This document shows, piece by piece, positions 23,486 through 64,000 of a stretch of 64,000 bases of DNA (position 1 is its first letter; each line of letters opens with the position of its first letter). Source of the DNA: an uncultured bacterium (GTDB lineage Bacteria > UBA8481); NCBI GenBank assembly GCA_964499705.1, contig CAZCME010000022.1, positions 1-64,000 on the forward strand, given 5' to 3'. The notes under the pieces were generated by a model. It made no database searches. It had not been told where the DNA came from and saw nothing but the letters and a program-made list of their open reading frames with translations. A program made the translations under genes and the position numbers.

Positions 23486-24049
23486 CTAGGGAACGAGCCG
23501 GCCATTTTCTATCTTCGTGCCCGGACCGGGAGAGGCTCCGCGCACCGTGCCGGACACGACCCTGATGATGCCGAAGCCGTCGGAAACGCCGAAGAGCGGA
23601 TCTCCCTCGATCGCCCAGAGCTTCCATGATCCGCTTTCTTTCTTCAGCATGAGCGCCGAGTCCTGCTCCCTCACCAGCCACTCCTGGCCGCCGAACGGAA
23701 TATAGGCGCGACGAAACCAGCGCATCTGCACGCGGCAGAGCGTATTCTCTTCGAAGAACTGGACGGACTCCACGAAGACCTCGAAGGAGGGATTGTCGAT
23801 GTTGCGGAAATCGTCCCTCACCGCCTGCGAAAACCAGACCCTGTTGCTGCCGCTGCCGGATGCGCCTCGAAATTCATCGGAGACCTGTTCCTCGAAGGAG
23901 AAGATATCCTCCATTTCATAGGCGCGGAAGAGCGCTTCGACGGCATCCCTGACGGGTGTCGCCGGGCGACGGAGATGCTGACGATATTTAATGTCCACGG
24001 CGCTGCAGCCGCAGGCCAGCAGAAGAGTCAGGACGATCAGTCTTCTCAT
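23486..24049 (-). CDS. Putative lipoprotein, possibly NTF2/SnoaL-like
   Basis: MRRLIVLTLLLACGC lipobox-like signal; 'VEALFRAYE..D...' and 'LKKESGSWKL' resemble the NTF2-like fold. Confidence 0.6.
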   Translation of the reverse strand: MRRLIVLTLLLACGCSAVDIKYRQHLRRPATPVRDAVEALFRAYEMEDIFSFEEQVSDEFRGASGSGSNRVWFSQAVRDDFRNIDNPSFEVFVESVQFFEENTLCRVQMRWFRRAYIPFGGQEWLVREQDSALMLKKESGSWKLWAIEGDPLFGVSDGFGIIRVVSGTVRGASPGPGTKIENGRLVP

Positions 24050-24101
24050 GGTGCCCCCCGTTTTCCGCACGCGCCCGCGATCTCGCGGCCACATGGAAAT
24101 C

Positions 24102-25376
24102 TTACACCCTCCCGCCGTACTTGATCACCGCCCGGAATGTCCGCAGGAGGATGGAAATGTCCATCTCGAGCGACCTGTTCATGGCGTAAAAGAGATCGAG
24201 CCGGGCTTTTTCCTCGTCGGTCAGCTCGTCACGGCCCGCCACCTGCACAAGGCCGGTCAGACCCGGCGTGGCTTCCAGCACCTGCATGCGCCAGGCCGGA
24301 TAGGTCGCCACCAGCTCAGGGAGCTCCGGGCGCGGTCCCACAAGCGACATCGAACCGAAGAGCACGTTGACGAGCTGCGGGAGCTCATCGAGCGACCAGC
24401 GCCTGAGAAATTTCCCGATGGGCGTGATGCGCCCGTCTTCCACGGCCGTCAGTCGCGGTCCAGGCGCGCCATGGATCATCGTCCTGAACTTCAGGATCCG
24501 GAACGATCGTCCGAAATGACCGGCACGTTCCTGGAGAAAAAAGACCGGGCCGGGCGAAGAAAGTTTCACGGCCATGGCCACGAGCACGATGAGCGGAGAG
24601 AGCGCGAGAAGCGATGCGATGGAGACCGAGATGTCGATGGCCCGCTTGGCATAGTGGTAGTGACGGTCCCGGCGCACGCTGCCCACTTCCATCGCCACGC
24701 ATCCGCCCAGGTCGACCGCCCGCGAACCGGACAGGAGAATATCCTCCACGTCCGCCAGGACAAAGACGCTCCGCCCCGCCGCCCGCACGAGGATCGACGG
24801 CTCGAAGTCGGCCGCGGCGACGAAGACCGCTTCCGCGGCATTCCCGTCCCGGGATTCGTCGAGACGGCTGTTGACGGCGGAGACGCGGTATTCCCATCCT
24901 TCCTGCTCCAGAAACATGTTCAGCCGCTCCGCCGTGATCCTGTTTCCCACGAGGATGGCCGCGCGGACCGGACGAAGAACGCGCGCGGCTTCTCCCTGGA
25001 GAAATCTCCAGAAAGTGGCCAGGGTGAGAAAGCAGAGCGATTCGTAAACAAGAACGAGCCGGGATGTTTCCAGGATCCGCGTGAAGAAAACCGAGGCCGC
25101 GAGGAGGACCGTTCCGGCCGCCCAGGCCTGGACGAGATCGGCGTAGTCGAAGCCGCGAGGAAACGCGAACGAGCGGCGATAGAGCCCGGCCGCGTAGAAT
25201 CCTCCGAGCCGGCACAGCACGATGACCGGCATCAGGACGCGGGCGTCCTCGAAATCGGCGACGGGAATGAGGGCTCCGAATCGAAGATAGAGGGCGACCT
25301 CCACGGCGACATAGACGACGATCGCGTCCAGCAAAAGAGCGGCCGCGGGCTCGAAGCCCCGCAATCTACCGCGCAT
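24102..25376 (-). CDS. Polyprenyl-phosphate sugar phosphotransferase (initiating glycosyl-1-P transferase)
   Basis: KRAIDI, PGPVFFLQERAG, ILKFRTM, RITPIGKFLRRWSLDELPQL, MSLVGPRPE, PGLTG. Confidence 0.92.
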   Translation of the reverse strand: MRGRLRGFEPAAALLLDAIVVYVAVEVALYLRFGALIPVADFEDARVLMPVIVLCRLGGFYAAGLYRRSFAFPRGFDYADLVQAWAAGTVLLAASVFFTRILETSRLVLVYESLCFLTLATFWRFLQGEAARVLRPVRAAILVGNRITAERLNMFLEQEGWEYRVSAVNSRLDESRDGNAAEAVFVAAADFEPSILVRAAGRSVFVLADVEDILLSGSRAVDLGGCVAMEVGSVRRDRHYHYAKRAIDISVSIASLLALSPLIVLVAMAVKLSSPGPVFFLQERAGHFGRSFRILKFRTMIHGAPGPRLTAVEDGRITPIGKFLRRWSLDELPQLVNVLFGSMSLVGPRPELPELVATYPAWRMQVLEATPGLTGLVQVAGRDELTDEEKARLDLFYAMNRSLEMDISILLRTFRAVIKYGGRV

Positions 25377-25418
25377 CAGGACGCGGGCGCGTGGAACGGA
25401 ATTTCGGCAGACGGGAGG

Positions 25419-27254
25419 TCATTGCGGAGCGTATTCCGGAACCAGCTTCTTCAACGCCGTCCTCAGACCGGCCTCGTCGAAAAGTTTGCCGCCGAGCGAA
25501 TCCAGTTCGGCCGTGAAGTCCGCGGACACATCCTCGTCGCGCGTGATGCGGAAAACCTTTTCCACTCCGGCCGGCGCCACGTTCTCCCCTTCCGTCAGGA
25601 CTTCCTCGAAGAGTTTTTCCCCGGGACGAAGTCCCGTGAAATGGATGGGGATATCCAGTTCGGGCCGGAGACCCGCGAGCGTGATCATGTTCTTCGCCAG
25701 GTCGAGGATCCGGATCGGCTGCCCCATCTCCAGCACGAACAACTCGTGGCGCTTCGCGAGAATCGAAGCCTGGATCACGAGAAAGACCGCCTCCTGCACC
25801 GTCATGAAGAACCGGACGACATGCGGATGCGTCACGGTCACGGGACCGCCCGACTCGATCTGGCGGCGGAACAGGAGCGGCGCGGAGCCGCTGGAGCCGA
25901 AGACGTTGCCAAAGCGCACGGCGGAAACGAGCATTCCTCCGCCATGATGACGCGCCATGGCGAAGAGCCACTTCTCCGCCGCGCGCTTGGTGGCGCCCAT
26001 CACGCTGGCTGGGCGCACCGCCTTGTCCGTGGAGATGAAAACGAATCGCGACACGCCGCTCGCCGCGGCAGCCTCGGCGACATTCCTCGTTCCGATGATG
26101 TTGACGGAAACGGCCTCGCTGACGTTCTCCTCCATCAAGGGCACATGCTTGAACGCGGCGGCATGGAAGACGATTTCGGGCTTCTCCCGGTCCATGATCT
26201 CCCGGATCCTGTCCGCCCGCCGCACGTCGGCAATGTAGGCGCGCATCCGGCCGGACGCGCCTTCCCGCCCACCGAGCTCCTGCGTGATCATGTAGATGGC
26301 CGTCTCCGAAAGATCGACGAGCACGATCCGCGCGTCGGCATCGAGAAGCTGCCGGCAGAGCTCCGAACCGATGGACCCTCCCGCGCCGGTCACGAGCACC
26401 TTCCTGCCGGACATCTCCTTCCGAAACTGGCCGGGATCGATCTCGATCATTTCACGCCCCAGGAGGTCCTCCGGCTTCAATTCCCTGATCCGCTCGAAAT
26501 CGACATCGCCCTTGATGATCGACAACAGGCCCGGCACGACGCGGAACCTCGTCTTCACCTCGCGGCAGGCGGCGATCATCTCCCGGACGGTCTCCCCCGA
26601 CGCGGAAGGAATCGCGATGATGAGCTCCTCCGCTTTCAACGCGGCCACCGCCGCCGGAATCTCCTCACGGCCGCCGATGACGCGCACGCCGTCGATCCAG
26701 AGCCCCTTCTTCGAAGCGTTGTCGTCGATGAATCCGACGACATTCATGTCCGATTGCGGATGCTTGCGGATCTCCCGCAGCGTCATGACGCCCGCGTCGC
26801 CCGCGCCGATGATGATGATGTTCCGACCCGACTCCGAAATGCTCCGGGGGCGCCGGCCCGTCTTCGGAAAAAGAATGCGGTCGGGCAGCACGCGAAAGCC
26901 GAAGCGATAGGAACCGAGGATGAAGAGCGTGAAGAGGGGTTCGAGGAGCAGCGAACCGCGGGAGGCGCCGGAAGGGCCGGCGAGGTAGGTCGCGGCCCAC
27001 CCGAGGAGCGTGCCGAGCGAAATCGCCGAAAGCAGCCAGCGCAGTTCCGTGGGGCCCGCGTAACGGAACGACCATCGGTGGCAGTTGAAGAGGTGAAGCG
27101 CGACGAGCTTTCCGACGACGACACCGGGCAGCGCGTAGAGAATAAGCTGCAGCTCGTCGCGCGGAATATCGCCGTCGAATCGCACGGAGGCGGCGAGGAA
27201 GAGCGCGCTGATGATGCCCAGCGAGTCCACGAGAAGCATGGTCAGGCGCCGCAT
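25419..27254 (-). CDS. Membrane-anchored UDP-GlcNAc 4,6-dehydratase (CapD/PglF family)
   Basis: Four N-terminal TMs, GAGDAG, VTGAGGSIGSELCRQ, HAAAFKHVP, STDKAV, GATK, VRFGNV, GLRPGEKL. Confidence 0.92.
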   Translation of the reverse strand: MRRLTMLLVDSLGIISALFLAASVRFDGDIPRDELQLILYALPGVVVGKLVALHLFNCHRWSFRYAGPTELRWLLSAISLGTLLGWAATYLAGPSGASRGSLLLEPLFTLFILGSYRFGFRVLPDRILFPKTGRRPRSISESGRNIIIIGAGDAGVMTLREIRKHPQSDMNVVGFIDDNASKKGLWIDGVRVIGGREEIPAAVAALKAEELIIAIPSASGETVREMIAACREVKTRFRVVPGLLSIIKGDVDFERIRELKPEDLLGREMIEIDPGQFRKEMSGRKVLVTGAGGSIGSELCRQLLDADARIVLVDLSETAIYMITQELGGREGASGRMRAYIADVRRADRIREIMDREKPEIVFHAAAFKHVPLMEENVSEAVSVNIIGTRNVAEAAAASGVSRFVFISTDKAVRPASVMGATKRAAEKWLFAMARHHGGGMLVSAVRFGNVFGSSGSAPLLFRRQIESGGPVTVTHPHVVRFFMTVQEAVFLVIQASILAKRHELFVLEMGQPIRILDLAKNMITLAGLRPELDIPIHFTGLRPGEKLFEEVLTEGENVAPAGVEKVFRITRDEDVSADFTAELDSLGGKLFDEAGLRTALKKLVPEYAPQ

Positions 27255-27345
27255 GTGTCAGGCGACCCGCTGCGTGGGACGAGCGACTGTCATGGCGCGG
27301 TCAGCATGAAGGCTCATCGTAAATCGTATTCGCCGCAGCGTAAAA

Positions 27346-28803
27346 TCATCTTTGTCGCTTCCATTCCAGAAAGAGTCCCGCCGGAATCAATTCCCCGCGG
27401 CGACCGAGTTCCTCCGGAGCATGATATTCGGGATCGACGCCCGCCAGGAAGATGGGAAGACCGCCGGATTGACGGATCAGCCGGTCGAAATCGGACAGCC
27501 TGTCTTCCTCGGAGAGCGCCAGGGCCCGGATCCCGGGCAGTCGTTTCTCCACGCGCGAGGCGTAATCGACGACGGGCATGATCTCCGGATCGGCGATCAG
27601 CACGGCATCGCGCGGCAGGAACTTTTCCATGTCGTCGATGCAGGGCGCGGCGCCCTCGTAACGCTTCACAGGCCACAGGGCATACCAGAGCGCGTTCTGC
27701 CAGGGGGTGCTGAGGAGCCGGGCTCGCGGGCCGGACGCGGTCACAAGACGTTGTTCCATGTCGGACGCATGCGCAAGGTAGACGATGGACGCCGTTGTCG
27801 CGATCGGCAGGACGGCGAGCGAGAACGCGAGGACGGGCGTCATGAAGAGCACGCGTTCCTTGCGAAGCGCGCGCAGCCTGTAGAGATGATCGAGGCCGTA
27901 TGCGATCAGGATTGTCGCGGCCAGTGAAGCGGGAAGGAGCGCGTCCAGATGGTCGCGGAACGTGAGCGGATGAGAGGACAGCGCGTTCCAGGGCATGGCG
28001 GAAAGGAGCATCGTCAGGAGAATTTCAAGAATGAGCGGGGAGCGGCGGCTCAGGTGCTTCATCCCCCAGGCCAGGAGCAACCAGTTGACGAACGGAAACT
28101 GAAATGCGATGGAAAGAAGGAGAATCCAGGAGGCGTGAAATCCGAAATCCGACGTGCTGGATGAAACGGCAAGGATCAACAGGATCCACGGAACGAACAG
28201 TTTCGGCGAGCGGAAACGAAGCCGAAGGCCGAGCCAGGCGAACGGGAGCAACGACGCCGCCACGGAGACCGGCTGGACCGAGAAGGCGAGAAGGGACCCG
28301 CACGCCGCGATGAGGACGTCTCGCTTTGTCTTCAGGTGCAGGAAGCGGACCAGGAAGTGGAGCTCCACCGCGAGAAACAACATCGCCATGGCGGAGACAT
28401 TGGGACGGGTCGAATGGGAAAACCAGGCCTGCGACAGGGCGAGGGCGGCCAGGGCGATGAGCGCCGTGCGGCCCGGAATGTTGCAGAGACGGATCGTCAG
28501 GTAGACGACGAGAAGCGTTGCCACCGACAGGAGGACGCAGAAGATCGTAACGGCCGCGGCGGGATTACCGAACGGCATCGCCAACACGAAGAGCCGGGCC
28601 GGAATGCGGAAGATCGCGGGGAAGATGTCGCCGCTTCCGGAGGCGCCCGTGATGCAGGTCGTCTGGAGCGCCGCTTCCGTGCCCCAACCCGGACCTGTCA
28701 GGCATGTCGCGGCATAAAGCGCGAGGCTGCAGAATAACAGGACGATGATGTCGCGCCCGGTTTCCGCATCCGGGCCCGCAAGATCGGATTCCGGTTCCAT
28801 CAT
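27346..28803 (-). CDS. Multi-pass membrane protein, degenerate DUF2723/TMEM260-like GT-C
   Basis: YAAT..., RLFVLAMPFGNPAAAV and ALSQAWFSHS follow the DUF2723 layout as I recall it, but the DSGE, HPPG and EVY motifs are altered. Start MMEPES at 28803. Confidence 0.55.
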   Translation of the reverse strand: MMEPESDLAGPDAETGRDIIVLLFCSLALYAATCLTGPGWGTEAALQTTCITGASGSGDIFPAIFRIPARLFVLAMPFGNPAAAVTIFCVLLSVATLLVVYLTIRLCNIPGRTALIALAALALSQAWFSHSTRPNVSAMAMLFLAVELHFLVRFLHLKTKRDVLIAACGSLLAFSVQPVSVAASLLPFAWLGLRLRFRSPKLFVPWILLILAVSSSTSDFGFHASWILLLSIAFQFPFVNWLLLAWGMKHLSRRSPLILEILLTMLLSAMPWNALSSHPLTFRDHLDALLPASLAATILIAYGLDHLYRLRALRKERVLFMTPVLAFSLAVLPIATTASIVYLAHASDMEQRLVTASGPRARLLSTPWQNALWYALWPVKRYEGAAPCIDDMEKFLPRDAVLIADPEIMPVVDYASRVEKRLPGIRALALSEEDRLSDFDRLIRQSGGLPIFLAGVDPEYHAPEELGRRGELIPAGLFLEWKRQR

Positions 28804-29987
28804 CGGCCGGAACGCAGGGGGCCGGTTTCGGGCGAACAAGCGCGGCGCGTCGAAGCGGCCTTCTCCCAGGAAGCCTGCGATCTGCCGAACAGGCCGGAAA
28901 GGGCGCCGATGAACGCGGCCGCGGTGGCTCCCGCGAGATAGCAGACCGCGGAGATCACGGGAATTCTCCGGCCGGTCCATGCCGCGATGGAACCCGTCAG
29001 GAGGACCGCCGTGGAGAGGGGGAGCGCGGATCGGCAGGCGATCGCGACCGGACGCATCGCCGCGCTTTTCTCGAAGACTCGGGAAGCCGGGCGCGCGGAG
29101 ACGAGCGCGAGAAGCCCCAGCGGAAAAAGAAACCAGCGGATCGCTTTCTGAGAAACGAGCGCGAAGCAGGTGAGCGGATTCGGCAGACCGAACGTGAGGC
29201 TCCTCGCCACCCGGATATCCTGCGCCACCATCCGGACGCGGCGGCGCCATTCCTCCCTCATCGCCGTTCCCGCCCGCTCGTACGCCACCGCGTCACGGAC
29301 GAATATGTTCCGGCGGCCCGCCCGATGCAGCGAGAGAGGCACGTAGGAATCGTCGGCCAGATCGGTCTCCAGCGCGGCCGGCCAATCCTCCTTCCTGACC
29401 GCGTAGATGCCGCCCGCGCCCATCAGCAGGAGACCGCTGTCCGACGCATAAGTCTTGATCATGGTCTCGTATTTCCAGTAGAGATTCTCCCCTTCCGCCG
29501 AACCCGCTTCCGCCGGATTGGAATAGCGGAGATCTCCCGCGGCGATGCCGACGTCGGGATCGCGGAGCGGCTCTACGAGGAGGTCGACGGCGCCGGTCTC
29601 GAAGCGCGTGTTCGCGTCGGTGATCACGAGGACGTCGCCCGCCGCGGCGCTCACGCCCTCGTGAAGCGCGCGGATCTTGCCGCCGCGAGGAAGTTCGATG
29701 ACCCTGGCTCCCGCGTCACGCGCGCATTCCGCGGTGCGGTCCGTGGAGCCGTCGGAGATGACGATGACTTCCAGCAGGCGCGCCGAACCATTCTCCAGAA
29801 GATTCGCGACACGTTCTCCGATCTCAGTCTCCTCGTTGTGCGCGGCGACGAGCGCGGTGACGCGCGGCGAGGGCAGGATGTTGCGCGAAGCAAAGGGCTC
29901 CCTCCTGCCGGCAAGCACTTTCACGAAGAAGGGATAGCCGGCGATATTCCAGGTTATGATCGAGAGCGAGGCGAGAAAAACGATCAT
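28800..29987 (-). CDS. Glycosyltransferase family 2 (membrane-associated)
   Basis: VAAHNEE, SDGSTDRT, GKIRAL, TDAN, GGIYAVRK, DD, EWRRRVR. Confidence 0.9.
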   Translation of the reverse strand: MIVFLASLSIITWNIAGYPFFVKVLAGRREPFASRNILPSPRVTALVAAHNEETEIGERVANLLENGSARLLEVIVISDGSTDRTAECARDAGARVIELPRGGKIRALHEGVSAAAGDVLVITDANTRFETGAVDLLVEPLRDPDVGIAAGDLRYSNPAEAGSAEGENLYWKYETMIKTYASDSGLLLMGAGGIYAVRKEDWPAALETDLADDSYVPLSLHRAGRRNIFVRDAVAYERAGTAMREEWRRRVRMVAQDIRVARSLTFGLPNPLTCFALVSQKAIRWFLFPLGLLALVSARPASRVFEKSAAMRPVAIACRSALPLSTAVLLTGSIAAWTGRRIPVISAVCYLAGATAAAFIGALSGLFGRSQASWEKAASTRRACSPETGPLRSGR

Positions 29988-30940
29988 GGATTCTTCTCCG
30001 GAGTTTCCCGCGCACGAAGGCTCCAGGGCATCCCGTCCTCCGCGCGCATTTCCAGCTGTGGCGAATCGGGACGACTCAGGCAGGCTCCAAGTTCACGCAA
30101 TCCCGCGCGGCGCGCCGGATCGCGCGCGAGGAGCGCTCCCAGTCGGGAAGCGACCTTCAAACGCGCCGCCAGCCTCACGGCGGCGGCCTCCCCGCAATGC
30201 TTGCGGATCAGCGTGACGGCTCCCGTGTAATACAGAACCTCCCGCCCCGGAGGAACATCCACGCCGCCCGCGTGGACGATCGAGACCGTCGGATCGTAGA
30301 TGTTGACGAAGCCGCGTGCTCGCGCCCGGAGACACCAGTCGACCTCCTCGTGATACAGGAAAAACCGCTCATCAAAGGGTCCCACTTCTTTCCAGGCGCG
30401 AGGCGAGATCATGAAGCACGAGCCCTGAACGGCGACGACATCGGTCCGATGATCCGGCATCGTGCGGGAAATGCCGAGCGACTTCACCCAGCGCTGAATG
30501 CCGAGCGCCTCCATCCACGGTCCGTGTTCCGCGGGTTCTCCGTACACGGATGCCTGGACATCTCCGCCCGGCGTCAGCACGCGCGGAGCCGCGATGCCGA
30601 CATTGCCGACGACCCAGGTCACGAACGACGCCCATCTTCCGTCGACGAGGTAGGCGTCGGGATTCATGACAAGTACCGGTCTCCGGTGACGCGACCGCTC
30701 CAGCGACCAGCCGACTCCCGCGTTCACGCCCGAGGCGAAACCACGGTTCTCGCGATATTCGATCAGGTTGATCCTTCGCCCCGCATCCCGATGAGTGCGA
30801 AACTGATCCGCCTCCCCTGTTCCATTCTCCACGACGCAGATGTCCGCGAGCGCCGGACCGAGGTGATGCCGAGCCGACCGGATCGCGGTCAGCGCTTCGC
30901 GGCAGGAACCGTGGTTGATGATGACAAGATCGCATTGCAT
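29984..30940 (-). CDS. Glycosyltransferase family 2 (rhamnosyl/galactofuranosyl-transferase-like)
   Basis: ENRGFASGVN, MNPD, GSCFMI, FDERFFLYHEEVDWCLR. Confidence 0.9.
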   Translation of the reverse strand: MQCDLVIINHGSCREALTAIRSARHHLGPALADICVVENGTGEADQFRTHRDAGRRINLIEYRENRGFASGVNAGVGWSLERSRHRRPVLVMNPDAYLVDGRWASFVTWVVGNVGIAAPRVLTPGGDVQASVYGEPAEHGPWMEALGIQRWVKSLGISRTMPDHRTDVVAVQGSCFMISPRAWKEVGPFDERFFLYHEEVDWCLRARARGFVNIYDPTVSIVHAGGVDVPPGREVLYYTGAVTLIRKHCGEAAAVRLAARLKVASRLGALLARDPARRAGLRELGACLSRPDSPQLEMRAEDGMPWSLRARETPEKNP

Positions 30941-30981
30941 GGGATGAGCTTACAGGGATGACGGAGGAAGGATGAAGTACT

Positions 30982-32058
30982 TCATCCTTTTCTCATGCCG
31001 TACAGTTTCAACAGCGCATCCGCCATGGTCTCCAGCCGGAATCTTTCCCGGTAGCGCGCGCGCGCGCGGAGCCCGGTCTCGGCACGGAACACGGGATCTT
31101 CCAGGTACCGCTTCACCGCGGAAGCGAAGTGCGCGGCCCGGTCCGCATCGGGAAGTTCCACGGGCACGATGAGCCCGGCGCCGCCGATCACTTCCGGATT
31201 CCCGCCGGCCGAGGTCGCGACGATCGCGCGGCCCGCGGCCAGGGCTTCCAGCAGCACAAGCGATGCTCCTTCGGACACGGAGGTATTAAGAACGATGGCG
31301 GCGGAAGCGAGCGCCTCCCGGAGCGACTTCACGGGAGGCTCCAGCAGGAATTTCGGAATCGTGGCGCCGACAAGCGCGGGCCGGCAGGGACCGTCGCCGA
31401 TCATGCGGATCCGCAGGAGATTCGGATGGGAGTGCACCATCCGGGCGATATCGAGCATCGTGCCGGGCGATTTTTCCGGCGAGAATCGCCCGGCCCACAG
31501 GATTTCGACCGCTCCATCGTGGTCCGGAGGATCGACGAATCCCGGATCAGGAACGCCGTTGGGAATCGTCACGGTCCTCTGCGCCGAAAAACCGGACGCG
31601 ATCAGCTCGCGCCTGTCCGCTTCGCACACCGCTATGACGGCCTCCGCCTTGCGCGCCGACCACATGTCCGCCCACTTGTACCACGCCGCCGGCACGGAGC
31701 TCGTCATGGCAAATTGCCGGTGGCTTCCGTGAATCGTGATGATCCGCCGGCAGGGCGTGGCGAGCATGGCGGCCAGGAGCGTCGCCTTCGTCTGATGCGA
31801 ATGCAGAATGTCCGGCTCGAACCGCGCCACGATCCGCTCCAGTTCCGGAACGGACTGCAGCGGAATTTTTCCCGGCGTCGGAAGGATCTCAATGTCCGCC
31901 CCGGCGTCGGTGTAACGTTCCACCATCGGCCCGTCCGCGAGAACCACGACGAGGTGCTGAGCGGGCACGGACTTCACGATGTGCTCCACGTGGATCTCCG
32001 CGCCGCCAAGGTCCGCGCCGGAGAGAAGACTCAGGACCCTCACGGCGCTCTTCTCCAC
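30982..32058 (-). CDS. Glycosyltransferase family 4
   Basis: GGAE, IPNGV, GRFSPEK, EGASLVLLEALAAG, GGNPEVI. Confidence 0.9.
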   Translation of the reverse strand: MEKSAVRVLSLLSGADLGGAEIHVEHIVKSVPAQHLVVVLADGPMVERYTDAGADIEILPTPGKIPLQSVPELERIVARFEPDILHSHQTKATLLAAMLATPCRRIITIHGSHRQFAMTSSVPAAWYKWADMWSARKAEAVIAVCEADRRELIASGFSAQRTVTIPNGVPDPGFVDPPDHDGAVEILWAGRFSPEKSPGTMLDIARMVHSHPNLLRIRMIGDGPCRPALVGATIPKFLLEPPVKSLREALASAAIVLNTSVSEGASLVLLEALAAGRAIVATSAGGNPEVIGGAGLIVPVELPDADRAAHFASAVKRYLEDPVFRAETGLRARARYRERFRLETMADALLKLYGMRKG

Positions 32059-33941
32059 CAGGAAGAGTTGTCGCCGGTCGAGAAGATCCTGTGGCGGTAC
32101 ATGAGGGGCGCGAAGACGCGGTACGGCAGGGCGGGATCACGTCGCGCTTCGGCGCGCTTTTGAAGCTCCGCGGCGAATTCAGGAGCCGCTTCCGCGTAAA
32201 GCCGGCACAGCACCGCGTCCGTGCCGTATTGCTGTAGCGCCAGGAGGTGCGCTTTTTCGAGCAGGCGACGCGCGCGCGGCCGGTCGTCCTCCAGGAGCGC
32301 GCGTGCTCCCAGGTAGCGATAATGCCTCCAGCTCAGCACGTCTCCGTCGGCCGGGACCATCGACGGCGCGATGGCGAAGGGATCGGGAAACTCGATGCCG
32401 TAATGCCGATCGATGAAGGAAGGCTCCACGGGCCGGGACTCGCGGAGAAACCACGCCGCTAGAACCGGCGCGAGCTCGCGTGTTGTCTCGATCATCCTCC
32501 TGGATTCCTCCTGCCGCCCGTTGGATCGATATGTCCACGCGAGATCGAGGGTGTGCGGCCCGAGAATGAGGCGCGGATCGAGCGCGGCGGCGCGAAGGAA
32601 CGACGCGACGGCGCCGGGAGTGTCGCCGCGCGCCAGGAGCGCGTATCCCGAGATCCTGAGGGCGAACGGATCGTGTTCCGCTCCGCGGTAGTTCGCCGGA
32701 ACATTCTTCTCGACGCACGCATCCAACTGCTGCGATAGAGGCGCGAGCGGCAACCCGGGCTGGATGTCGTGCAGGACGGGAAGCAGCGCGGCGGCGAAAC
32801 CGGAGACGATGAGAAGAGAGGACGCCTCGCGCGCGGACAGTCGATAACGGGACGCGGCGACCATCGTCGCGGCCGCGGCGAAGAAGACGAACGCGAGCAT
32901 GGGGATCCAGAACATGTCGTCCGTCAGAGAGCCGCCGAGGATCGCGAGCATGACGCCGGGCGCCCACGCCGCGCGCGCGGAACGCACGGCTCCGTGAACA
33001 GCCGCGGCCAGGAACGAGGCCCATGCCAGAAGACCGATGATACCGCTTTCAAAGGCCACGCGGAGGATGAGGCTGTGCGGATGCAGTTCCCATTTCGGCC
33101 AGGAGAGAAAGGACTGACCGAGCACGGGAAAAGACCAGGGGCCGAAACCGAGGAGCGGCCTGTCGAGGAACGCGCGACCCACGCCGCGCCACATCGAGAG
33201 GCGCTGAGCGTTCGTCAGGTAGGCCGGATCCAGCCTGTCTATGAACTTGGGGAGAAACAGGACGGTCGCGACCGCCAGGACGACGGCGCCGGCGAGGAGA
33301 ACAAGGCGGCGCGACTGCGACGGCATCCTCAGGAACGGCCAGGCCATGCCGAGGGCAGCGGCCACGAGCCCCGTTCTCGACTCCGTCAGCACGATGGCGG
33401 AAACGATCGCAAGCGAAAGGATCGCGAAGAGCGGCCGCGCGAATCGGGTTCGCAATTCCCAGAGCGCCGGCAGCGAAGCCGCAAGCGCGACCGACGATAC
33501 GCCGGCGCCCGCAAGGAATCCGGCGGCGCCGAGACCGAGCCCGGCCCGGCCGAGGACCATGTAATTCCCGAGAGCCTCGACATGAATGGAAGCCGCGAGC
33601 GCGAGCGAGGCGAAGACAAGCGACATCGCGAAATGATGATCGTCGTCGGCCGGGAAAAGGATGTTGGCGGCTACCGCGCAGAAGAAGAGCTGAAAAAGTT
33701 CCTCGAAACCGAGTCCCGGAATGAGGGCGGTCGAGAGGGACGCAAGCGCCGCGAAGACGGGGAGGAAAAGTGGAAGGCGGAGCGGGATGACATCCCCGCT
33801 TCGGAGCGAAGCCAATGCTGCCAGTGTGACAAGACCGAGCGTCACCATCCGGCCTCGGGGATCGATACCGCCGGCCGAGACCGTCCACCCCAGCACCAGC
33901 GCAGATCCAAATAATGAGGGAACGATACGCGCGCTTTTCAT
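32040..33941 (-). CDS. O-antigen ligase / oligosaccharyltransferase-like (Wzy_C) protein with C-terminal TPR-like helices
   Basis: LTESRTG, QRLSMW, PLLGFGPWSF, HPHSLILRVAFESGIIG; many TMs followed by a helical tail. Confidence 0.8.
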   Translation of the reverse strand: MKSARIVPSLFGSALVLGWTVSAGGIDPRGRMVTLGLVTLAALASLRSGDVIPLRLPLFLPVFAALASLSTALIPGLGFEELFQLFFCAVAANILFPADDDHHFAMSLVFASLALAASIHVEALGNYMVLGRAGLGLGAAGFLAGAGVSSVALAASLPALWELRTRFARPLFAILSLAIVSAIVLTESRTGLVAAALGMAWPFLRMPSQSRRLVLLAGAVVLAVATVLFLPKFIDRLDPAYLTNAQRLSMWRGVGRAFLDRPLLGFGPWSFPVLGQSFLSWPKWELHPHSLILRVAFESGIIGLLAWASFLAAAVHGAVRSARAAWAPGVMLAILGGSLTDDMFWIPMLAFVFFAAAATMVAASRYRLSAREASSLLIVSGFAAALLPVLHDIQPGLPLAPLSQQLDACVEKNVPANYRGAEHDPFALRISGYALLARGDTPGAVASFLRAAALDPRLILGPHTLDLAWTYRSNGRQEESRRMIETTRELAPVLAAWFLRESRPVEPSFIDRHYGIEFPDPFAIAPSMVPADGDVLSWRHYRYLGARALLEDDRPRARRLLEKAHLLALQQYGTDAVLCRLYAEAAPEFAAELQKRAEARRDPALPYRVFAPLMYRHRIFSTGDNSSWWRRAP

Positions 33942-35131
33942 GATCCGGATCCTGCCAATCGAGCAAGCTGTTTTTCCGCGGCGAGTTCCTGGTAGAGGTG
34001 TTCCAGCCTGCGAAACATTTCCTCCAGCGTGAACTCATCCCGGAACGCGACGCGGGCCCTGTCGCCCATAGCCGCGCGTCGATCGCGATCGCGGAGAAGT
34101 TCACCCGCGGCATCGGCCATGTTCTCCACGGCTCCGGGCGGGAAAAGCATGCCCGTGTCGCCGTCGCGAACCGCTTCCGGTATGCCGTCGACGTTCGTCG
34201 AAACGCAGGACACTCCCAGCGCCGCCGCCTCCAGGATCACGCGGGGCAGACCCTCGAAGAGCGCCGTATGAAGTAGAAGGTCCGAGGCCGCGAGCAGCCG
34301 CGTCGCATCGGATCTCCACCCCAGGAGGCGAACCCTGGAAGACCAAGGGGCCAGGAGCGCCTCGACCTTCGCGCGCAACGGACCATCTCCTGCCACGATG
34401 AAATGCGCATCCGGATTCGCGGCGAGGACGCGCGCGGCGGTTCGCGACAGATCGATCGGAGCCTTCTGCGGCTTGAAATTTCCGACGGCGATCATGAGCG
34501 GCGCTTCGGGCGGAATATCCAGTTCCCGGCGCGTCTCCCCGCGCTGCATTAACAGCGCGGTATCCACGGAAATACCCGATCGGATCGTGACGTATTGCTC
34601 CGGTCGACCGATGCCAGCGGAAAGCGCCTTCTCGCGGTTCGCATCCGCGACAACCACGATCCTGTCCGTCAGGCGCGCCGCGCGACGTTCCACCGCCTGG
34701 TAGATCGCGCGGACGACAGGAGGCTGGTGGTCGTGAAACGCCCACCCATGCGCGGTATGCACGACGGCCGGCACATGCTCGGCGCGCGCCGCTTCGCGGC
34801 CGAGGATTCCCGCTTTCGAAGAATGCGTGTGGACGATGTCGGGTCGGAGCCTTCTGATGATCTCGCGCAACGTCGAAAGCGCTTCCGCGTCCCGAACGGG
34901 GGCGATTTCACGCACGAGAGAGCGAACCGGGATGTAACCGCGGCCGAGCCGGTCAGCGGCTTCTTTCTCCAACGCGCCGGGCGCCGCGGCGACCCAGGAT
35001 TCATGACCGCGACGCCTCGCCTCTTCAGCGGATAAAATCGTGTTCCATTGCGCGCCGCCCATCTCCAGCATCGTGACGACATGGAGAATGCGGAGCCGGG
35101 CATCGGGTCTCCCGGACACGATATTCGTCAT
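33938..35131 (-). CDS. Glycosyltransferase family 4
   Basis: GGAQ, PDIVHTHSSKAG, HTAHGWAF, EGLPRVILEA, VDGIPEAV. Start MTNIVSG at 35131 overlaps the MFS stop. Confidence 0.9.
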   Translation of the reverse strand: MTNIVSGRPDARLRILHVVTMLEMGGAQWNTILSAEEARRRGHESWVAAAPGALEKEAADRLGRGYIPVRSLVREIAPVRDAEALSTLREIIRRLRPDIVHTHSSKAGILGREAARAEHVPAVVHTAHGWAFHDHQPPVVRAIYQAVERRAARLTDRIVVVADANREKALSAGIGRPEQYVTIRSGISVDTALLMQRGETRRELDIPPEAPLMIAVGNFKPQKAPIDLSRTAARVLAANPDAHFIVAGDGPLRAKVEALLAPWSSRVRLLGWRSDATRLLAASDLLLHTALFEGLPRVILEAAALGVSCVSTNVDGIPEAVRDGDTGMLFPPGAVENMADAAGELLRDRDRRAAMGDRARVAFRDEFTLEEMFRRLEHLYQELAAEKQLARLAGSGS

Positions 35132-36357
35132 GCGGCGGCCGTCTCGGATACAGGTTTCGGTTCGCCCATGATCCTGCATCGCATCATGACAAGGCTCCCG
35201 GCCACGATGATAAGCCCTCCCGCCAGGAGAAAAACAGGCTCCCCGTACCGGTCGGCGATGATGCCCGCGAGAAAACCTCCCATGGGCAGCGCGCCCATGA
35301 ACGTGGAGGAATAGAGCGCCATGACGCGACCGCGCAGCCTGTCCGGTGTCAAAGATTGGAGGAGCGTGTTGGTGGAGGACGATTGAATGAGACATCCGAA
35401 GCCGGCGAAGAAGAGGAGCATCGCGGCGGGAGGGATCGCTCTCATGAAAGCGAACACAGCCAGCGAGATTCCGAACAGGACTCCGCCGTACACCGGCCAC
35501 GACCGGAAGTCGGATCCCGAGCGGCGCGACGCCACGAGGAGCGCGCCGCAGAAAGCTCCCACGCCCGTGGACGCCATCAGGTAACCGAGAGTGTCTGGAC
35601 CTCCCCCGAGGACGCGGCTGACGTGGGCGGGAAGGAGGATGACGTAGGGATTGCCGAAGAAAGCGCAGACGATGTGCAGCAGCAGGAGCGACGCGACGGA
35701 AGGATGGGTCCGGGCGAAATGAATGCCTTCGCGCACCTCCGCGACAAGCGAACTTCCCGATTCGACTTTCAACTCCCCCGGAAGTTTCATCGACGCGAAA
35801 CCGGCGATGATCGGCAGGAAAGAAATCGCGTTGAAGGCGAAGCACCAGCCTTCTCCGACGGCGGAGATCATGACGCCGGCCATGGCCGGACCCAGGACGC
35901 GGGCGCCGTTGACGATCGCGGAATTCAAGGCGATCGCGTTCGGCAGATCGTCCCGACCCACCATGGAGATGAAGAGCGACTGGCGGGCCGGAATATCGAC
36001 GGCCCACGCCAGACCGGAGAGGATCGCGATCGCCACGACATGCCAGGGCATGACCATGCCGGAAATGGTCAGGGCGGAAAGAATTCCGGCGAGAAGCATC
36101 ACGGAAATCTGCGTGACGATGATGAGGATGCGCTTGTCGTGCCGGTCGCACAATGCTCCCGCGAACGGCCCCACGAGAAAGCCCGTCCCCTGTTGCGCGA
36201 GAGCGACGAGACCGAGCATGGACGCGGAGCCGGTGAGCCGGTAAACGAGCCATCCCAGGGCGACCGACTGCATCCACGATCCGACGTGCGAGACGGCCTG
36301 GCCCGCCAGATACATCCGGTAATTCGCATGGCGTAAAGCTCTGAAAACGAAGCGCAT
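35128..36357 (-). CDS. MFS transporter (MFS_3/DHA3-like)
   Basis: FRALRHANYR..GQAVS.VGSWMQ, DIPARQ, NAIALNS, LRGRVMA; ~12 TMs. Confidence 0.9.
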   Translation of the reverse strand: MRFVFRALRHANYRMYLAGQAVSHVGSWMQSVALGWLVYRLTGSASMLGLVALAQQGTGFLVGPFAGALCDRHDKRILIIVTQISVMLLAGILSALTISGMVMPWHVVAIAILSGLAWAVDIPARQSLFISMVGRDDLPNAIALNSAIVNGARVLGPAMAGVMISAVGEGWCFAFNAISFLPIIAGFASMKLPGELKVESGSSLVAEVREGIHFARTHPSVASLLLLHIVCAFFGNPYVILLPAHVSRVLGGGPDTLGYLMASTGVGAFCGALLVASRRSGSDFRSWPVYGGVLFGISLAVFAFMRAIPPAAMLLFFAGFGCLIQSSSTNTLLQSLTPDRLRGRVMALYSSTFMGALPMGGFLAGIIADRYGEPVFLLAGGLIIVAGSLVMMRCRIMGEPKPVSETAAA

Positions 36358-36388
36358 AAGCGGGCGAGTGTATCATAAACGGGCGTCG

Positions 36389-36418
36389 TTGACATAAAGC
36401 TGTGGAGAAGCGGATACT
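36389..36418 (+). promoter_or_regulatory. Sigma-70-like promoter for the DprE1/DprE2-like pair
   Basis: TTGACA-N18-GATACT, 6 nt before ATG 36425. Confidence 0.5.
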
Positions 36419-36424
36419 TCGAGG

Positions 36425-37756
36425 ATGCGCCTGACTTCTCACGAATCATGGGGCCGTTACCCCTCCGCGCGCCAGGAAGTCATCCCTCTGAACTGGTCGA
36501 AGGATTCCTGGCCCGCGACGGAGAAGAAAGTTCTGCCGAGAGGGCTCGGCCGGAGCTACGGCGACTGCTGTCTCAACGACGACGGCGTGCTTCTCGAAAC
36601 GACGCCGCTGGACAGGCTCCTGGATTTCAATCCCTCCACGGGAATCCTCACATGCGAATCCGGAGTCACTCTTGCGGAGATCATCCGCGTCTTTTCTCCG
36701 AGGGGATATTTTCCTCCCGTCGTTCCGGGCACGAAATTCGTCACGGTCGGCGGAGCCATCGCCAACGACGTTCACGGCAAGAATCACCATCAGGCGGGAA
36801 CATTCGGCTGTCATGTGAAGAGCCTGGCCCTGCGCCGATCCTCAGGCGAAATCCTGGCCTGTTCTGCGGAATCGAATCCGGAGCTCTTCGCCGCGACGAT
36901 CGGGGGTCTCGGCCTGACCGGCGTCATACTCCGGGCGGAAATCATCCTGAAACCGATCGCAAGTTCCGTCATCGAGGTGGAAAGCGTCCGCTTCGAAGAC
37001 TTCGATTCCTTCTGGGACCTGGCGGTCGCGTCGGAGCAAACCTACGAATATACCGTCGCATGGATGGACTGCCTTCCGGGCCGCCCCTGCCGCGGTCTGT
37101 TCCTCCGTGGCGATCACGCGGACGGCGAGCCCGGTATTCCTGTAAGCGCTCCTGCCGCGATAGCTGATTCCTTATTCGAAGTACCGGATGTCATTCCCGA
37201 TTTCCTGATGAACTCATGGAAAATGCGCGCCTTCAATTTCGCCTATTTTCACCGGCAGACAAGCCGACTCTCCAGGAAGCGCGTCGGCGTCGATCCCTTC
37301 TTCTTCCCCCTCGACGCCGTCGGATCCTGGAACAGGCTCTACGGTACCCGAGGATTCCTTCAGCACCAGTGCGTCATCCCACAGGACGAGAACCGCTCCT
37401 CGGCCCGCCGGATCCTGGGTTATATCAAGGGTTGTTCCGATCGGGTGTTCTGCAGCCTCGCGGTCGTGAAGACATTCGGAGACCGGCGGTCGCCCGGCAT
37501 CCTGTCGTTTCCTCGAAAGGGCATCACGTTCGCGCTCGACTTCCCCGCCGATCGGCGGGAGACTTTCGCGCTCCTCGACCGCATCGACGGAATCGTCCGG
37601 GATTCGGGAGGCGCGATCTACCCCGCGAAGGACGCGCGCATGTCTCCGGAGACGTTCCGCGCGTCCTTTCCTCGCTGGAAGGAATTCGCGCGGCAGATCG
37701 ATCCGGCCTTTTCGTCCGGCTTCTGGCGAAGGGTATGTGGAAAAGATGAGGGATGA
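36425..37756 (+). CDS. FAD-dependent oxidoreductase, decaprenylphosphoryl-ribose 2'-oxidase (DprE1)-like
   Basis: RGLGRSYGD, VVPGTKFVTVGGAIANDVHGKNHH, YTVAWMD, FFFPLD, GFLQHQ, LSFP..G.TFALDF, YPAKD. Confidence 0.88.
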   Translation: MRLTSHESWGRYPSARQEVIPLNWSKDSWPATEKKVLPRGLGRSYGDCCLNDDGVLLETTPLDRLLDFNPSTGILTCESGVTLAEIIRVFSPRGYFPPVVPGTKFVTVGGAIANDVHGKNHHQAGTFGCHVKSLALRRSSGEILACSAESNPELFAATIGGLGLTGVILRAEIILKPIASSVIEVESVRFEDFDSFWDLAVASEQTYEYTVAWMDCLPGRPCRGLFLRGDHADGEPGIPVSAPAAIADSLFEVPDVIPDFLMNSWKMRAFNFAYFHRQTSRLSRKRVGVDPFFFPLDAVGSWNRLYGTRGFLQHQCVIPQDENRSSARRILGYIKGCSDRVFCSLAVVKTFGDRRSPGILSFPRKGITFALDFPADRRETFALLDRIDGIVRDSGGAIYPAKDARMSPETFRASFPRWKEFARQIDPAFSSGFWRRVCGKDEG

Positions 37757-37779
37757 ATTGTGAAGGGTGAGGAGATTTC

Positions 37780-38517
37780 GTGAATAAGATCGCGATATTC
37801 GGAGCCACGTCGGCGATCGCGCAGGGGGCGGCGCGGTGTTTTGCGGCCGAAGAAGCCGAGTTTTTCCTGGTGGCGCGCCACGCGGAGAAGCTGGAAGCGG
37901 CGGCGGCCGATCTCCGGGTGCGCGGCGCTTCGCGTGTCGTCACGCGCCTCAGTGATCTCAACGCGTTCGACCAGCACCTCGCGCTGGTGCAGGAAGCCGA
38001 CTCGGCGCTGGGCGGGATCCAGGTCGCGATCATCGCGCACGGAACATTGTCGGATCAGGCTCGATGCGAAGGAGACGCGACGCTCGCACGGCAGGAACTC
38101 GACACCAACTTCGTAGGACCCGTATCGCTTCTGACTCACCTGGCCAATCTGCTCGAATCGCGACCGGGAAGCGTCATCGCGGTCATCACTTCCGTCGCGG
38201 GCGACCGGGGCCGAAAGAAGAACTACGTCTATGGCGCCGCGAAAGGCGGCCTCGGCATCTTCCTTCAGGGTCTTCGCAACAGGCTCGCGGATAAGCACGT
38301 TTCCGTCATCACCGCCAAGCCCGGCTTCGTCTCCACGCCCATGACCGCGCACCTCCGGCAGGGTCCCCTTTATGCATCTCCGTCCAGGGTCGGTCGCGGC
38401 ATCCATGACGCCATATGTGCCCGGAAGAATATCGTCTACCTGCCCTGGTTCTGGCGGCCGATCATGTTCATCATCCGCGCCATCCCGGAACGTTTCTTCA
38501 AAAGGATGAACTTATAG
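37780..38517 (+). CDS. Short-chain dehydrogenase, DprE2-like
   Basis: GATSAIA, SVAGDRGRKKNYVYGAAK, KPGFVSTPMT; directly after the DprE1-like gene. Confidence 0.85.
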   Translation: MNKIAIFGATSAIAQGAARCFAAEEAEFFLVARHAEKLEAAAADLRVRGASRVVTRLSDLNAFDQHLALVQEADSALGGIQVAIIAHGTLSDQARCEGDATLARQELDTNFVGPVSLLTHLANLLESRPGSVIAVITSVAGDRGRKKNYVYGAAKGGLGIFLQGLRNRLADKHVSVITAKPGFVSTPMTAHLRQGPLYASPSRVGRGIHDAICARKNIVYLPWFWRPIMFIIRAIPERFFKRMNL

Positions 38518-38630
38518 GGGGACATTCTCCAACATTCCAACATTCAGATTACTGGTACTTGCGTGAGTAAGGACACCCATTTCTCGTAACTCCCTGCATT
38601 TTCAATGTTGGAATGTTGGAGAATGTCCCC
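38518..38630. mobile_element. MITE-like element with perfect 27-bp inverted repeats between convergent stop codons
   Basis: GGGGACATTCTCCAACATTCCAACATT 38518-38544; exact reverse complement at 38604-38630. Confidence 0.7.
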
Positions 38631-39148
38631 TATTCCTCTGTCGTCTGCATCGCTTTCAGCCACATCGCCGCAGGATCGATGTCGAAGACAAGCTCCGGAG
38701 TGGCGTCGGCGAGGAGCCAGTAACCGCCTTCCATCTCCTTCTCCAGCTGTCCGGGGCCCCAGCCGGAATAACCGAGGCAGATGCGGAACCGGCCGGCGGG
38801 TTCCATCAGCATGGACCGGATGGCCGGCGCGGACGACGAGAACGCGACATGACTGACGACCTCCGACGCGACGCCGATGCCCCGGCCTCCGTCATGCACC
38901 ACCCAGACCGTCTGCGTCTCCACGGGTCCCCCGAGGCAGACGTTCGGCGCGGGATCCGATCCGCCCCAGGATATGCCGAGCGAATCGGAGAGCTTATCGA
39001 CGGTGAGCTCGAGCGGGCGGTTCATGACGAGCCCGAATGCTCCTTCATCCTCGTATTCGATCACGAGCACCACCGTCTGGATGAAATTGGGATCCAGGAG
39101 AAAGGGGTGCGCGATAAGAAGTTTTCCTTTTTCGATCGTCGTGTTCAT
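38630..39148 (-). CDS. YqgE/AlgH (DUF179) family protein
   Basis: LLIAHP..LDPNF..TVV, GAFGLVMNRP, GGPV, GYSGWGPGQLEKE. Confidence 0.92.
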   Translation of the reverse strand: MNTTIEKGKLLIAHPFLLDPNFIQTVVLVIEYEDEGAFGLVMNRPLELTVDKLSDSLGISWGGSDPAPNVCLGGPVETQTVWVVHDGGRGIGVASEVVSHVAFSSSAPAIRSMLMEPAGRFRICLGYSGWGPGQLEKEMEGGYWLLADATPELVFDIDPAAMWLKAMQTTEE

Positions 39149-40182: not shown

Positions 40183-40216
40183 ACGTGAGAACGAGAAAGA
40201 GTACGCGGTTAATACG

Positions 40217-44377: not shown

Positions 44378-44416
44378 AAAGCGGACCGGATCGTCCTTTC
44401 CCGCTCAATAGCCTCA

Positions 44417-44487
44417 TTTTACGTGTAAAAATTTATACCGACTTCTTCGGGCTTTTCCGTAGCTTTCAAACCTTCGAAAATTTATAC
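44417..44487 (+). promoter_or_regulatory. Candidate regulatory sites upstream of the giant gene
   Basis: Palindrome TTTTAC-GT-GTAAAA 44417-44430; direct repeat AAAATTTATAC at 44428 and 44477; AT-rich intergenic region. Confidence 0.35.
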
Positions 44488-44594
44488 TTCCTTCCAGTAT
44501 GTCCTATCGGGGTTGATGGGGCTCCAAAAACAGACATGAGGAGAGAGGCGAGATCAGACAGGGACGTTTGAGAGTTGGGGCAATCGTGCCGCGC

Positions 44595-64000: not shown

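Follow-up and report, generated by a model that had tools for sequence, protein, structure and literature searches.

The DNA analysed here, hereafter the window, is a stretch of 64,000 nucleotides (positions 1 to 64,000 of contig CAZCME010000022.1, assembly GCA_964499705.1) from an uncultured bacterium of the GTDB lineage UBA8481. The contig measures 81 kb, of which the window takes up the first 64 kb, and belongs to a genome of 4.67 Mb that is 96% complete. The window carries a cluster of glycan-assembly genes and, downstream of it, the beginning of a gene for a secreted giant protein in which aspartate is very often followed directly by serine or threonine (D-S/T). The open reading frame (ORF) of the giant starts at position 44568, crosses the window end and stops at contig position 79160, giving a protein of 11,530 amino acids and 1.2 MDa. 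Its N-terminus has a hydrophobic signal-like stretch followed by Kelch-like repeats. The middle part is built of units of ~630 amino acids, each composed of a right-handed β-helix, a fibronectin type III (FN3) domain and a further β-sandwich, and long FN3-like arrays come after them. The C-terminus, which lies beyond the window, is a domain in the style of type IX secretion systems (T9SS). The gene directly 3′ of the giant (contig positions 79169-80224) codes for a barrel protein of the PorV/PorQ family (162 bits versus a cut-off of 90). The signal-like N-terminus, the T9SS-style tail and the PorV/PorQ partner gene identify the giant as a protein that reaches the periplasm.

The D-S/T pattern was first noticed between positions 45960 and 46280, where 7 of 10 Asp residues precede Ser or Thr (DTS, DTS, DTL, DTI, DSV, DSV, DTN). 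The same residues were re-derived from the reading frame, and the pattern, originally followed to 64000, continues past the window to 79160. In the complete giant 522 of 781 Asp (66.8%) precede Ser or Thr, which together make up 23.0% of its residues. Shuffled versions of the protein contain 180±11.5 such pairs (1000 shuffles, maximum 215; z = 31 with 300 shuffles). The D-S/T fraction of Asp ranges from 0.53 to 0.88 in blocks of 500 amino acids, save for the last full block (0.38), while the pairs [ST]D and D-x-D are depleted. According to excerpts of a 2025 review, D-(S/T)-(A/I/L/V/M/T) is the only known bacterial O-glycosylation sequon, is unique to Bacteroidota and acts on non-cytoplasmic proteins (PMC12871550); excerpts of another paper extend the T. 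forsythia motif to S/G/C/F (PMC11611037). The strict form D[ST][AILMTV] occurs 266 times in the giant (75±8 in shuffles) and the extended T. forsythia form 406 times (120±9 in shuffles), accounting for 266 and 406 of the 522 sites, respectively. The sequence context around the sites is diffuse. Relative to Ser/Thr without a preceding Asp, the residue that follows D-S/T is more often V (1.40x), I (1.37x), F (1.34x), Y (1.87x) and also T, and less often P (0.47x), D (0.45x), E (0.37x) and G (0.67x), with L and A not raised at this third position. Such a bias is compatible with a sequon, and also with the start of a β-strand at that point.

A recurrence of N-x-S in the FN3-like tails had also been pointed out. 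‘ENQSFYSDS’ is an invariant repeat motif of the giant, and N-x-S/T enrichment is marginal (237 versus 202.5±11.4 in shuffles, z = 3.0). No STT3 match was found in the genome (completeness as above), and a reading of the giant as an N-glycosylated protein was dropped on these two grounds.

The giant is one member of a class. Genome-wide gene calling with our own, crude codon-usage caller yielded 3,102 proteins, and a hidden Markov model of the giant’s tail, iterated on this proteome, defined a tail-bearing class of 33 proteins. Pooled, 4,680 of their 8,808 Asp residues precede Ser or Thr (53%, 2.47 times the value expected from composition), as against 7,596 of 70,151 (10.8%, 0.91 times composition) in all non-tail proteins. 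The ratio to composition is at least 1.6 in 29 of the 33 proteins and the four exceptions are the smallest ones (311-595 amino acids). The signature is thus common to tail-bearing proteins spread over many contigs, and the notion of a system dedicated to the giant is not supported. The class resembles T9SS cargo paired with outer-membrane partners of the PorV/PorQ/SprF type: four paralogues, through which the giant’s tail family is linked to PF18962 (Por_Secre_tail), score over the cut-off of that family, and of the 24 PorV/PorQ-like paralogues in the genome 21 lie directly downstream of a tail-bearing cargo gene. The likeness is less clear for the export machine. A SprA-like ORF of 2,150 amino acids (C5:203980-210432) gives three collinear matches that reach 97.8 bits, under the cut-off of 200, and GldM was not found by a search that matched nothing in any control genome either. 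The machine may therefore be a reduced or divergent relative of the T9SS.

D-S/T ratios of 2.3-2.8 are reached as well by four large proteins of the same genome whose ends are dockerin/EF-hand-like and lack the T9SS-style tail (C10:41487-53428, C3:57475-62793, C33:10427-17203); the two that were scanned against Pfam contain β-helix and Sortilin/BNR-type domains. A further giant without such a tail is encoded at C14:2206-25674 (minus strand; loci L010 and L011). It has 7,822 amino acids arranged in Ig-like/TIG/ALTTAQ repeats and is rich in Ser and Thr (20%).

Selection on D-S/T operates on the protein. After Asp, the use of each of the ten Ser/Thr codons amounts to 0.72-1.12 of its overall share, and D-S/T involves both Asp codons, which excludes a DNA motif. 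Eleven metagenomic homologues of the giant have 45-70% D-S/T. In alignments of 30-60% identity, whose cells, drawn from repeats and related proteins, are not independent, Ser/Thr is retained as Ser/Thr in 78% of cases after Asp versus 48% elsewhere, and Asp is retained in 73% of cases before Ser/Thr versus 49% elsewhere. Ser/Thr is kept in 90% of cases where the Asp is kept and in 46% where it is lost. Judging from these alignments, D and S/T are selected as a unit at the protein level.

The distribution of D-S/T over folds was surveyed by cutting the proteins of 15 loci into chunks of 400 amino acids, which were compared with Pfam. The excess is seen in chunks with Beta_helix, Big_13, Big_7, Big_1, LTD, fn3 and Ig_Rha78A_N domains and in many unannotated chunks; in Big_13 chunks 16-22 of about 31 Asp precede Ser or Thr. 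D-S/T is absent from catalytic modules, as illustrated by a 9,660-amino acid amylase giant (0/30 in its α-amylase chunk and 0/29 in its GH57 chunk), and from the tail region.

The same analysis was carried to other genomes. A six-sequence PorV alignment identified 80 loci in species-representative genomes, and the ORF scored at each was the one ending just before the PorV match, provided that it had at least 500 amino acids. The GTDB phylum of the window comprises five species, and loci in two of the sister genomes are labelled Hydrogenedentes/Hydrogenedentota. In the four sister genomes (8 loci, 8 ORFs) 595 of 1,062 Asp (56%) precede Ser or Thr and the ratio is at least 1.8 in all eight; the D-S/T-positive genomes and ORFs of this phylum span GC contents of 0.44-0.67. 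The 45 loci labelled Elusimicrobia (34 ORFs) behave differently, with 348 of 2,712 (12.8%) and no ORF out of 34 at a ratio of 1.8 or more. Dozens of these loci have the cargo-PorV layout of the window genome, and Elusimicrobia-labelled cargo shares the Pfam families and has similar tails. By domain, a cargo protein with fn3/Big_7/Ig_Rha78A_N domains has 22/124 and one with Beta_helix/NosD domains 24/142. The remaining 27 loci (18 ORFs) give 292/1,971, with three ORFs reaching the ratio of 1.8. Since the same Pfam families are at baseline in Elusimicrobia-labelled cargo, the D-S/T excess is not explained by fold. Composition, codon bias and a generic β-turn or fold preference are excluded as the sole cause. 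The original observation is confirmed and holds more widely than first described.

Two Bacteroidetes-labelled genomes exceed their own background. In the first, ten tail-bearing ORFs have 167/485 (34%) versus 151/1,257 (12%) in the ORFs of four arbitrary 20-kb stretches; in the second, tail-bearing cargo has 43/190 (23%) versus 113/974 (12%) in background stretches. A weaker, cargo-specific excess is therefore present in the phylum for which experiments have established the sequon.

These observations led us to consider three explanations for the motif itself. We see an even balance for the first of them, namely that it is a D-S/T O-glycosylation sequon of the Bacteroidota type, present at extreme density outside Bacteroidota on type-IX-style cargo. 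The likeness concerns an Asp placed directly before Ser/Thr, a preference for hydrophobic residues and against Pro, Asp, Glu and Gly at the next position, which would also suit a strand start, and the location on Sec-exported T9SS-style cargo, as in known Bacteroidota O-glycoproteins; excerpts of PMC11611037 report periplasmic O-glycosylation of the T9SS substrates TfsA and TfsB. Also in favour of a sequon, among non-tail proteins D-S/T is depleted more often in the signal-peptide class, with ratios below 0.4 in 29.3% of its 215 proteins versus 19.4% of 521 proteins of the cytoplasmic class. The window organism differs in lying outside Bacteroidota, in a density that is far higher (53% of all Asp in 33 proteins) and in the lack of enrichment in its ordinary periplasmic proteins. 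For its lineage neither an lfg-type locus nor a glycan is known, an lfg-type locus not having been searched for.

Several results weigh against a sequon. The non-tail proteins of the signal-peptide class, assigned by crude heuristics on the crude gene calls, show no overall enrichment (ratios 0.80-1.0). The samples from the two Bacteroidetes-labelled genomes comprise few ORFs (10 and 4), picked by size. An Ignavibacteriota genome shows no excess (cargo 52/390 versus background 113/835), nor do 20 further tail-bearing ORFs from four Zixibacteria-like genomes, whose pooled ratios are 0.70-0.87 (one of the ORFs, L206, looks wrong-frame). Secretion of the Fibrobacteres-Chlorobi-Bacteroidetes type is therefore not generally marked by a D-S/T excess. 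All genomes with a strong signal belong to one small clade with five species representatives, so a match between the motif and any clade-specific gene counts as a single evolutionary event, and the signal could be a legacy of domain subfamilies expanded in the clade. In addition, many D-S/T sites are conserved repeat columns (GDSF, GDTI, VDTA, PDTV, SDS), and the secondary structure assigned by DSSP to a mediocre model of one giant unit (predicted local distance difference test (pLDDT) score 66.6) does not separate the sites, a loop or strand start being found at 20/27 Ser/Thr after Asp versus 94/126 other Ser/Thr. An ‘intermediate’ class of Zixibacteria-like genomes, based on single PorV-adjacent proteins at ratios of 1.6-2.2, was dropped once the 20 additional ORFs had been pooled.

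The second explanation takes up several of these points: D-S/T would be an unmodified turn or strand-cap preference (Asx/ST-type) of a few stalk-domain subfamilies that were duplicated in the clade and kept for folding. We consider it rather unlikely. The invariant repeat columns and the single clade agree with it, as do the FN3-like arrays of the giant, in which the same D-S/T positions recur, and the position of the Asp, found in loops or just before strands at 18/27 sites of the same model. A BLAST comparison of own with Elusimicrobia-labelled cargo returned only 6 high-scoring segment pairs, and the ‘same fold’ control therefore holds at the Pfam level only. In these pairs, however, D-S/T amounts to 53% on the own side and to 27% on the partner side, and the excess extends over at least seven Pfam families and unannotated regions with a diffuse context, families that are at baseline in Elusimicrobia-labelled cargo. 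The high-confidence β-helix core of the modelled unit contains no D-S/T at all. The 7,822-amino acid Ig-like giant of the same genome, furthermore, has D-S/T at 4 of 347 Asp, a 17-fold depletion (binomial p about 3e-28) that looks like active avoidance of the pair.

The third explanation is that D-S/T is read by something other than a glycosyltransferase, either as the site of another Ser/Thr modification (phosphate, acyl or similar) or as a recognition element for a periplasmic chaperone or export factor that would hold giant cargo in a state fit for the SprA-like/PorV-like route. The motif tracks the tail and the PorV pairing almost perfectly, D and S/T are coupled as a unit and the motif spares catalytic modules and the tail region, all of which would suit such a reader. 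We know of no system that reads D-S/T as another modification or as an export or chaperone signal. The Elusimicrobia-labelled genomes lack the motif in spite of an identical cargo-PorV layout, so export as such needs no motif, and as a target of O-glycosylation D-S/T is already established, going by the excerpts of PMC12871550. This third explanation appears very unlikely to us.

The cluster upstream of the giant is set out in Table 1. The content given in the original prediction agrees with ours (Bac_transf, Polysacc_synt_2, a weak PMT_2 match in a glycosyltransferase of the GT-C class, two glycosyltransferases of GT2 type, two of GT4 type and a Wzy_C protein with a TPR domain), except that the DprE1/DprE2-like pair (36425-38517) had been missed. 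Both members of the pair are clearly related to the DprE models, yet they score under the curated equivalog cut-offs and are not called equivalogs. The absence of Wzx, Wzz and Wzc was confirmed: neither these nor an exporter gave a family match on any ORF scanned from 64 to 44377. The order of initiating transferase, PglF-like gene, multi-transmembrane (TM) ORF, GT2, GT2, GT4, Wzy_C-TPR and GT4 genes is retained in all four sister genomes, and in two of them (G001 and G002) the DprE pair and, directly after it, the AsmA-like gene lie next to the cluster. Beside the initiating transferase gene, a 202-amino acid ORF (23486-24094) belongs to no Pfam or NCBIfam family. Elsewhere in the window, a lone flagellar rod/hook gene of the FlgE/F/G type (6283-7005) is found amid housekeeping genes (Amt, NadE, RecJ).

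Table 1. Genes of the glycan cluster, the intervening segment and the giant in the window (window positions; bit scores are followed by family cut-offs where available).
Feature	Position	Strand	Evidence and remarks
Initiating polyprenyl-phosphate glycosylphosphotransferase (Bac_transf)	24102..25376	-	PF02397 199 bits; TIGR03025 296.8 vs cut-off 295.55; orthologue in 4/4 relatives
PglF/CapD-type membrane nucleotide-sugar 4,6-dehydratase	25419..27254	-	PF02719 351 bits; orthologues 58-69% identical in 4/4 relatives
GT-C, PMT_2/TMEM260-like, ~485 aa, about 9-11 predicted TM helices	27346..28803	-	PMT_2 27.7 bits vs cut-off 26.1
GT2 glycosyltransferase	28800..29987	-	PF00535 77 bits; weak matches to dolichyl-P-hexose transferase and PpgS models
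GT2-like glycosyltransferase	29984..30940	-	PF13632 26.5 bits, just under cut-off 27; rhamnosyltransferase subfamily model E 1.6e-11
GT4 glycosyltransferase	30982..32058	-	PF13439/PF13692
Wzy_C membrane enzyme with C-terminal TPR domain	32040..33941	-	PF04932 61.2 bits vs cut-off 31.7 (65.8 bits in genome scan)
834-aa protein with C-terminal GT4	33938..36442	-	N-terminal ~440 aa without Pfam/NCBIfam family
DprE1-like FAD oxidase (polyprenyl-phospho-sugar 2′-oxidase type)	36425..37756	+	NF053785 352.8 bits, E 3.5e-105, under cut-off 500
DprE2-like short-chain reductase	37780..38517	+	NF053786 164.8 bits, E 2.6e-48, vs cut-off 250; NF005489 293.9 vs 267
AlgH-like protein	38630-39148	-	Between cluster and giant; not glycan-pathway
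MiaA	39145-40650	-	Between cluster and giant; not glycan-pathway
AsmA/YhdP/TamB-like protein, 1,386 aa	40217-44377	+	Between cluster and giant; not glycan-pathway
Secreted giant, first 6,477 of 11,530 codons	44568..64000	+	Pfam Beta_helix/NosD/fn3; repeat units; tail-family HMM

Two enzymes of the cluster are candidates for a transfer step outside the cytoplasm. The Wzy_C-TPR protein has full-length orthologues (36-47% identity) only in the four sister genomes among 25 genomes tested. A search of 1.84 billion sequences returned about 10 representatives at E≤1e-30, followed by generic Wzy_C matches near E 1e-8, and a word-indexed search found five. Its structure model (pLDDT 95.3) has as best fold in the PDB the ligase WaaL (7TPG; E 9.3e-5, TM-score 0.42 over the target), while a search with the single sequence matched no PDB chain; the single-sequence PDB search with the GT-C likewise gave nothing useful. 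H289, the His of an H-x-H-N motif, is invariant in an alignment of 91 sequences and R247 is retained in at least 90% of them; we take these two to be the catalytic residues. The protein thus has in common with the WaaL/PglL/PilO family a score over the Wzy_C cut-off, a WaaL-like fold and the conserved His and Arg. It differs by a 13th helix, by the TPR domain and by forming a subfamily almost confined to the clade of the window. WaaL has an N-in topology. With this topology assumed for the model, the order and parity of the helices (13 TM helices), the distribution of charges and a β-bridge that joins loops 51-53 and 367-369 suggest that the TPR domain of ~230 amino acids is periplasmic. The present data fit a ligase and a protein O-oligosaccharyltransferase alike.

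The GT-C probably starts at Met150/151 of its long ORF and has positional orthologues with 10-11 TM helices in all four relatives. Its description as DUF2723-like was half right. PF11028 remains under its cut-off on the window protein and matches one of the five positional orthologues (E 0.0019), and PMT_2 is barely reached, whereas a profile built from the five orthologues has a single match in the PDB, the protein O-mannosyltransferase TMEM260 (9RQL, E 6.6e-7, profile positions 42-203). GT-C O-mannosyltransferases of the TMEM260/PMT type pair with a polyprenyl-phosphate-sugar synthase (the Ppm1/Pmt logic), and in Pseudomonas aeruginosa TfpW acts with DprE1/E2 homologues in pilin O-arabinosylation. 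The cluster is reminiscent of both arrangements: the GT2 gene at 28800..29987, possibly coding for a polyprenyl-phosphate-sugar synthase to judge from its weak NCBIfam matches, overlaps the GT-C start, and the DprE1/E2-like pair is part of the same cluster. It departs from the TfpW/DprE system in the scores of the pair given above and in that a UbiA-type phosphoribosyltransferase was not seen among the genes of the locus. The pair, next to the GT2 and GT-C genes, looks like a module for making and epimerising a polyprenyl-phosphate sugar for use outside the cytoplasm.

PF11028 was tried as a marker of the motif and rejected because it does not discriminate, 24 of 25 genomes having it irrespective of the motif. 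The one PF11028 gene of the window genome (C6:26738-27178) lies amid unrelated genes. Genomes labelled Zixibacteria, Caldithrix, Ignavibacteriota, Fibrobacteraceae and Bacteroidetes (G007, G008, G009, G019, G021-G025) have strong PF11028 genes of ~900-1,075 amino acids (170-237 bits), which among 14 control genomes are found only in Bacteroides thetaiotaomicron; matches in the window genome and in Elusimicrobia-labelled genomes are mostly weaker (55-135 bits). Another GT-C gene drew attention by its position. At C4:23353-51762 (minus strand) a tight array consists of cargo, a PorV-like gene, a PMT_2-type GT-C of 659 amino acids (35839-37818), cargo and a PorV-like gene, with gaps of 29 and 56 bp. 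Both cargo proteins have the top D-S/T share of the genome (76.5% each). This GT-C was discarded as the motif enzyme: neither cargo nor a PorV gene lies within 1.5 kb of its sole full-length orthologue (G002), and a rough estimate puts the number of such adjacencies arising by chance at about one.

The glycosylation of the motif and every step that joins the locus to it are inferred. As supplier for the motif the upstream locus is a reasonable candidate, linked to it by circumstantial evidence and, in our estimate, improbable. As to proximity, from which the original prediction argued, three genes of housekeeping type (AlgH-like, MiaA and AsmA/YhdP-like) separate the cluster from the giant, and a giant (of β-helix type) comes after the locus in one of the four relatives, G002; none does in G003 and G005, and in G001 the contig ends too early. 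No flippase was found in the locus. The genome holds eight Wzy_C genes over the cut-off and 23 PMT_2 (GT-C) matches, which makes the locus one of many candidates. Judged from ORF lengths alone, at least four groups of Wzy_C genes are common to the five genomes, including a classical one of ~390 amino acids and one of ~860.

A cluster of this content may instead make an outer-membrane glycan, and this role is at least as likely as one in cargo glycosylation. Stated in full, the locus would produce a lipopolysaccharide (LPS) O-antigen or an A-LPS-like anchor for cleaved cargo, with the Wzy_C-TPR protein as polymerase or ligase, the GT-C as a Gtr or arabinosyl side-branch enzyme and no role at Ser/Thr; we put its probability a little short of even. 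An initiating transferase, a PglF-like enzyme, GT4 and GT2 glycosyltransferases and Wzy_C are standard content of O-antigen-type clusters, to which the GT2, GT-C and DprE1/E2-like genes presumably add a resemblance to lipid-linked sugar branch systems. The best fold match of the Wzy_C-TPR protein is an LPS ligase, and a gene of the AsmA/YhdP type, associated with outer-membrane lipid transport, follows the cluster here, in G001 and in G002. T9SS cargo of P. gingivalis is anchored via A-LPS, as stated in excerpts of PMC11611037. Against an outer-membrane glycan speak the ~390-amino acid Wzy_C group, which looks more WaaL-like in the classical sense and is also conserved in all five genomes, the missing Wzx, Wzz and ABC exporter and the TPR domain carried by the extra helix, which, if periplasmic, would be superfluous for reaching lipid A-core.

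The O-glycosylation reading, taken together with the locus, would run as follows. The cargo, which would cross the inner membrane via Sec, carries D-S/T roughly every 25 residues in its non-catalytic parts, namely stalks, linkers and β-helix caps. In the periplasm the Ser or Thr after Asp would receive a glycan in a general O-glycosylation step, and the glycosylated cargo would then be exported, to be displayed as a stalk with a heavy sugar coat that resists proteases. Potential sites number roughly 4,700 on the 33 cargo proteins, the giant being one of 33 presumed substrates with up to 522 sites. The locus, through its initiating transferase, PglF-like enzyme and four glycosyltransferases, would build a lipid-linked oligosaccharide, and two of its enzymes would act outside the cytoplasm, the Wzy_C protein with its putative periplasmic TPR domain and the TMEM260/PMT_2-like GT-C, with the GT2 and the DprE1/E2-like epimerase pair as probable suppliers of the latter. 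That the complete proposal holds, i.e. the densest D-S/T-directed general O-glycosylation yet, outside Bacteroidota and with one of these two locus enzymes as transferase, we regard as decidedly unlikely.

A literature search found no paper that joins Hydrogenedentes to O-glycosylation or type IX secretion; DUF2723 was not mentioned among the matches listed, and the TMEM260 papers did not mention Bacteroidota. In the excerpts of PMC12871550 the D-S/T oligosaccharyltransferase and ligase of Bacteroidota are described as still undiscovered, and the enzymes can therefore not be compared. If D-S/T is a sequon in this clade, a second, distant lineage would be under much stronger selection for the same dipeptide and the range of the system would be extended; sugar-coating would also account for the survival of megadalton stalk proteins in the extracellular environment. 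The sister-type secretion of Elusimicrobia-labelled genomes, which lack the motif, could then narrow down the enzyme, and if the Wzy_C-TPR protein or the GT-C of the locus is the transferase, it would provide a concrete enzyme class for the D-S/T O-glycosyltransferase. If the motif is purely structural, it would still be a striking, clade-wide sequence rule for β-rich surface domains.

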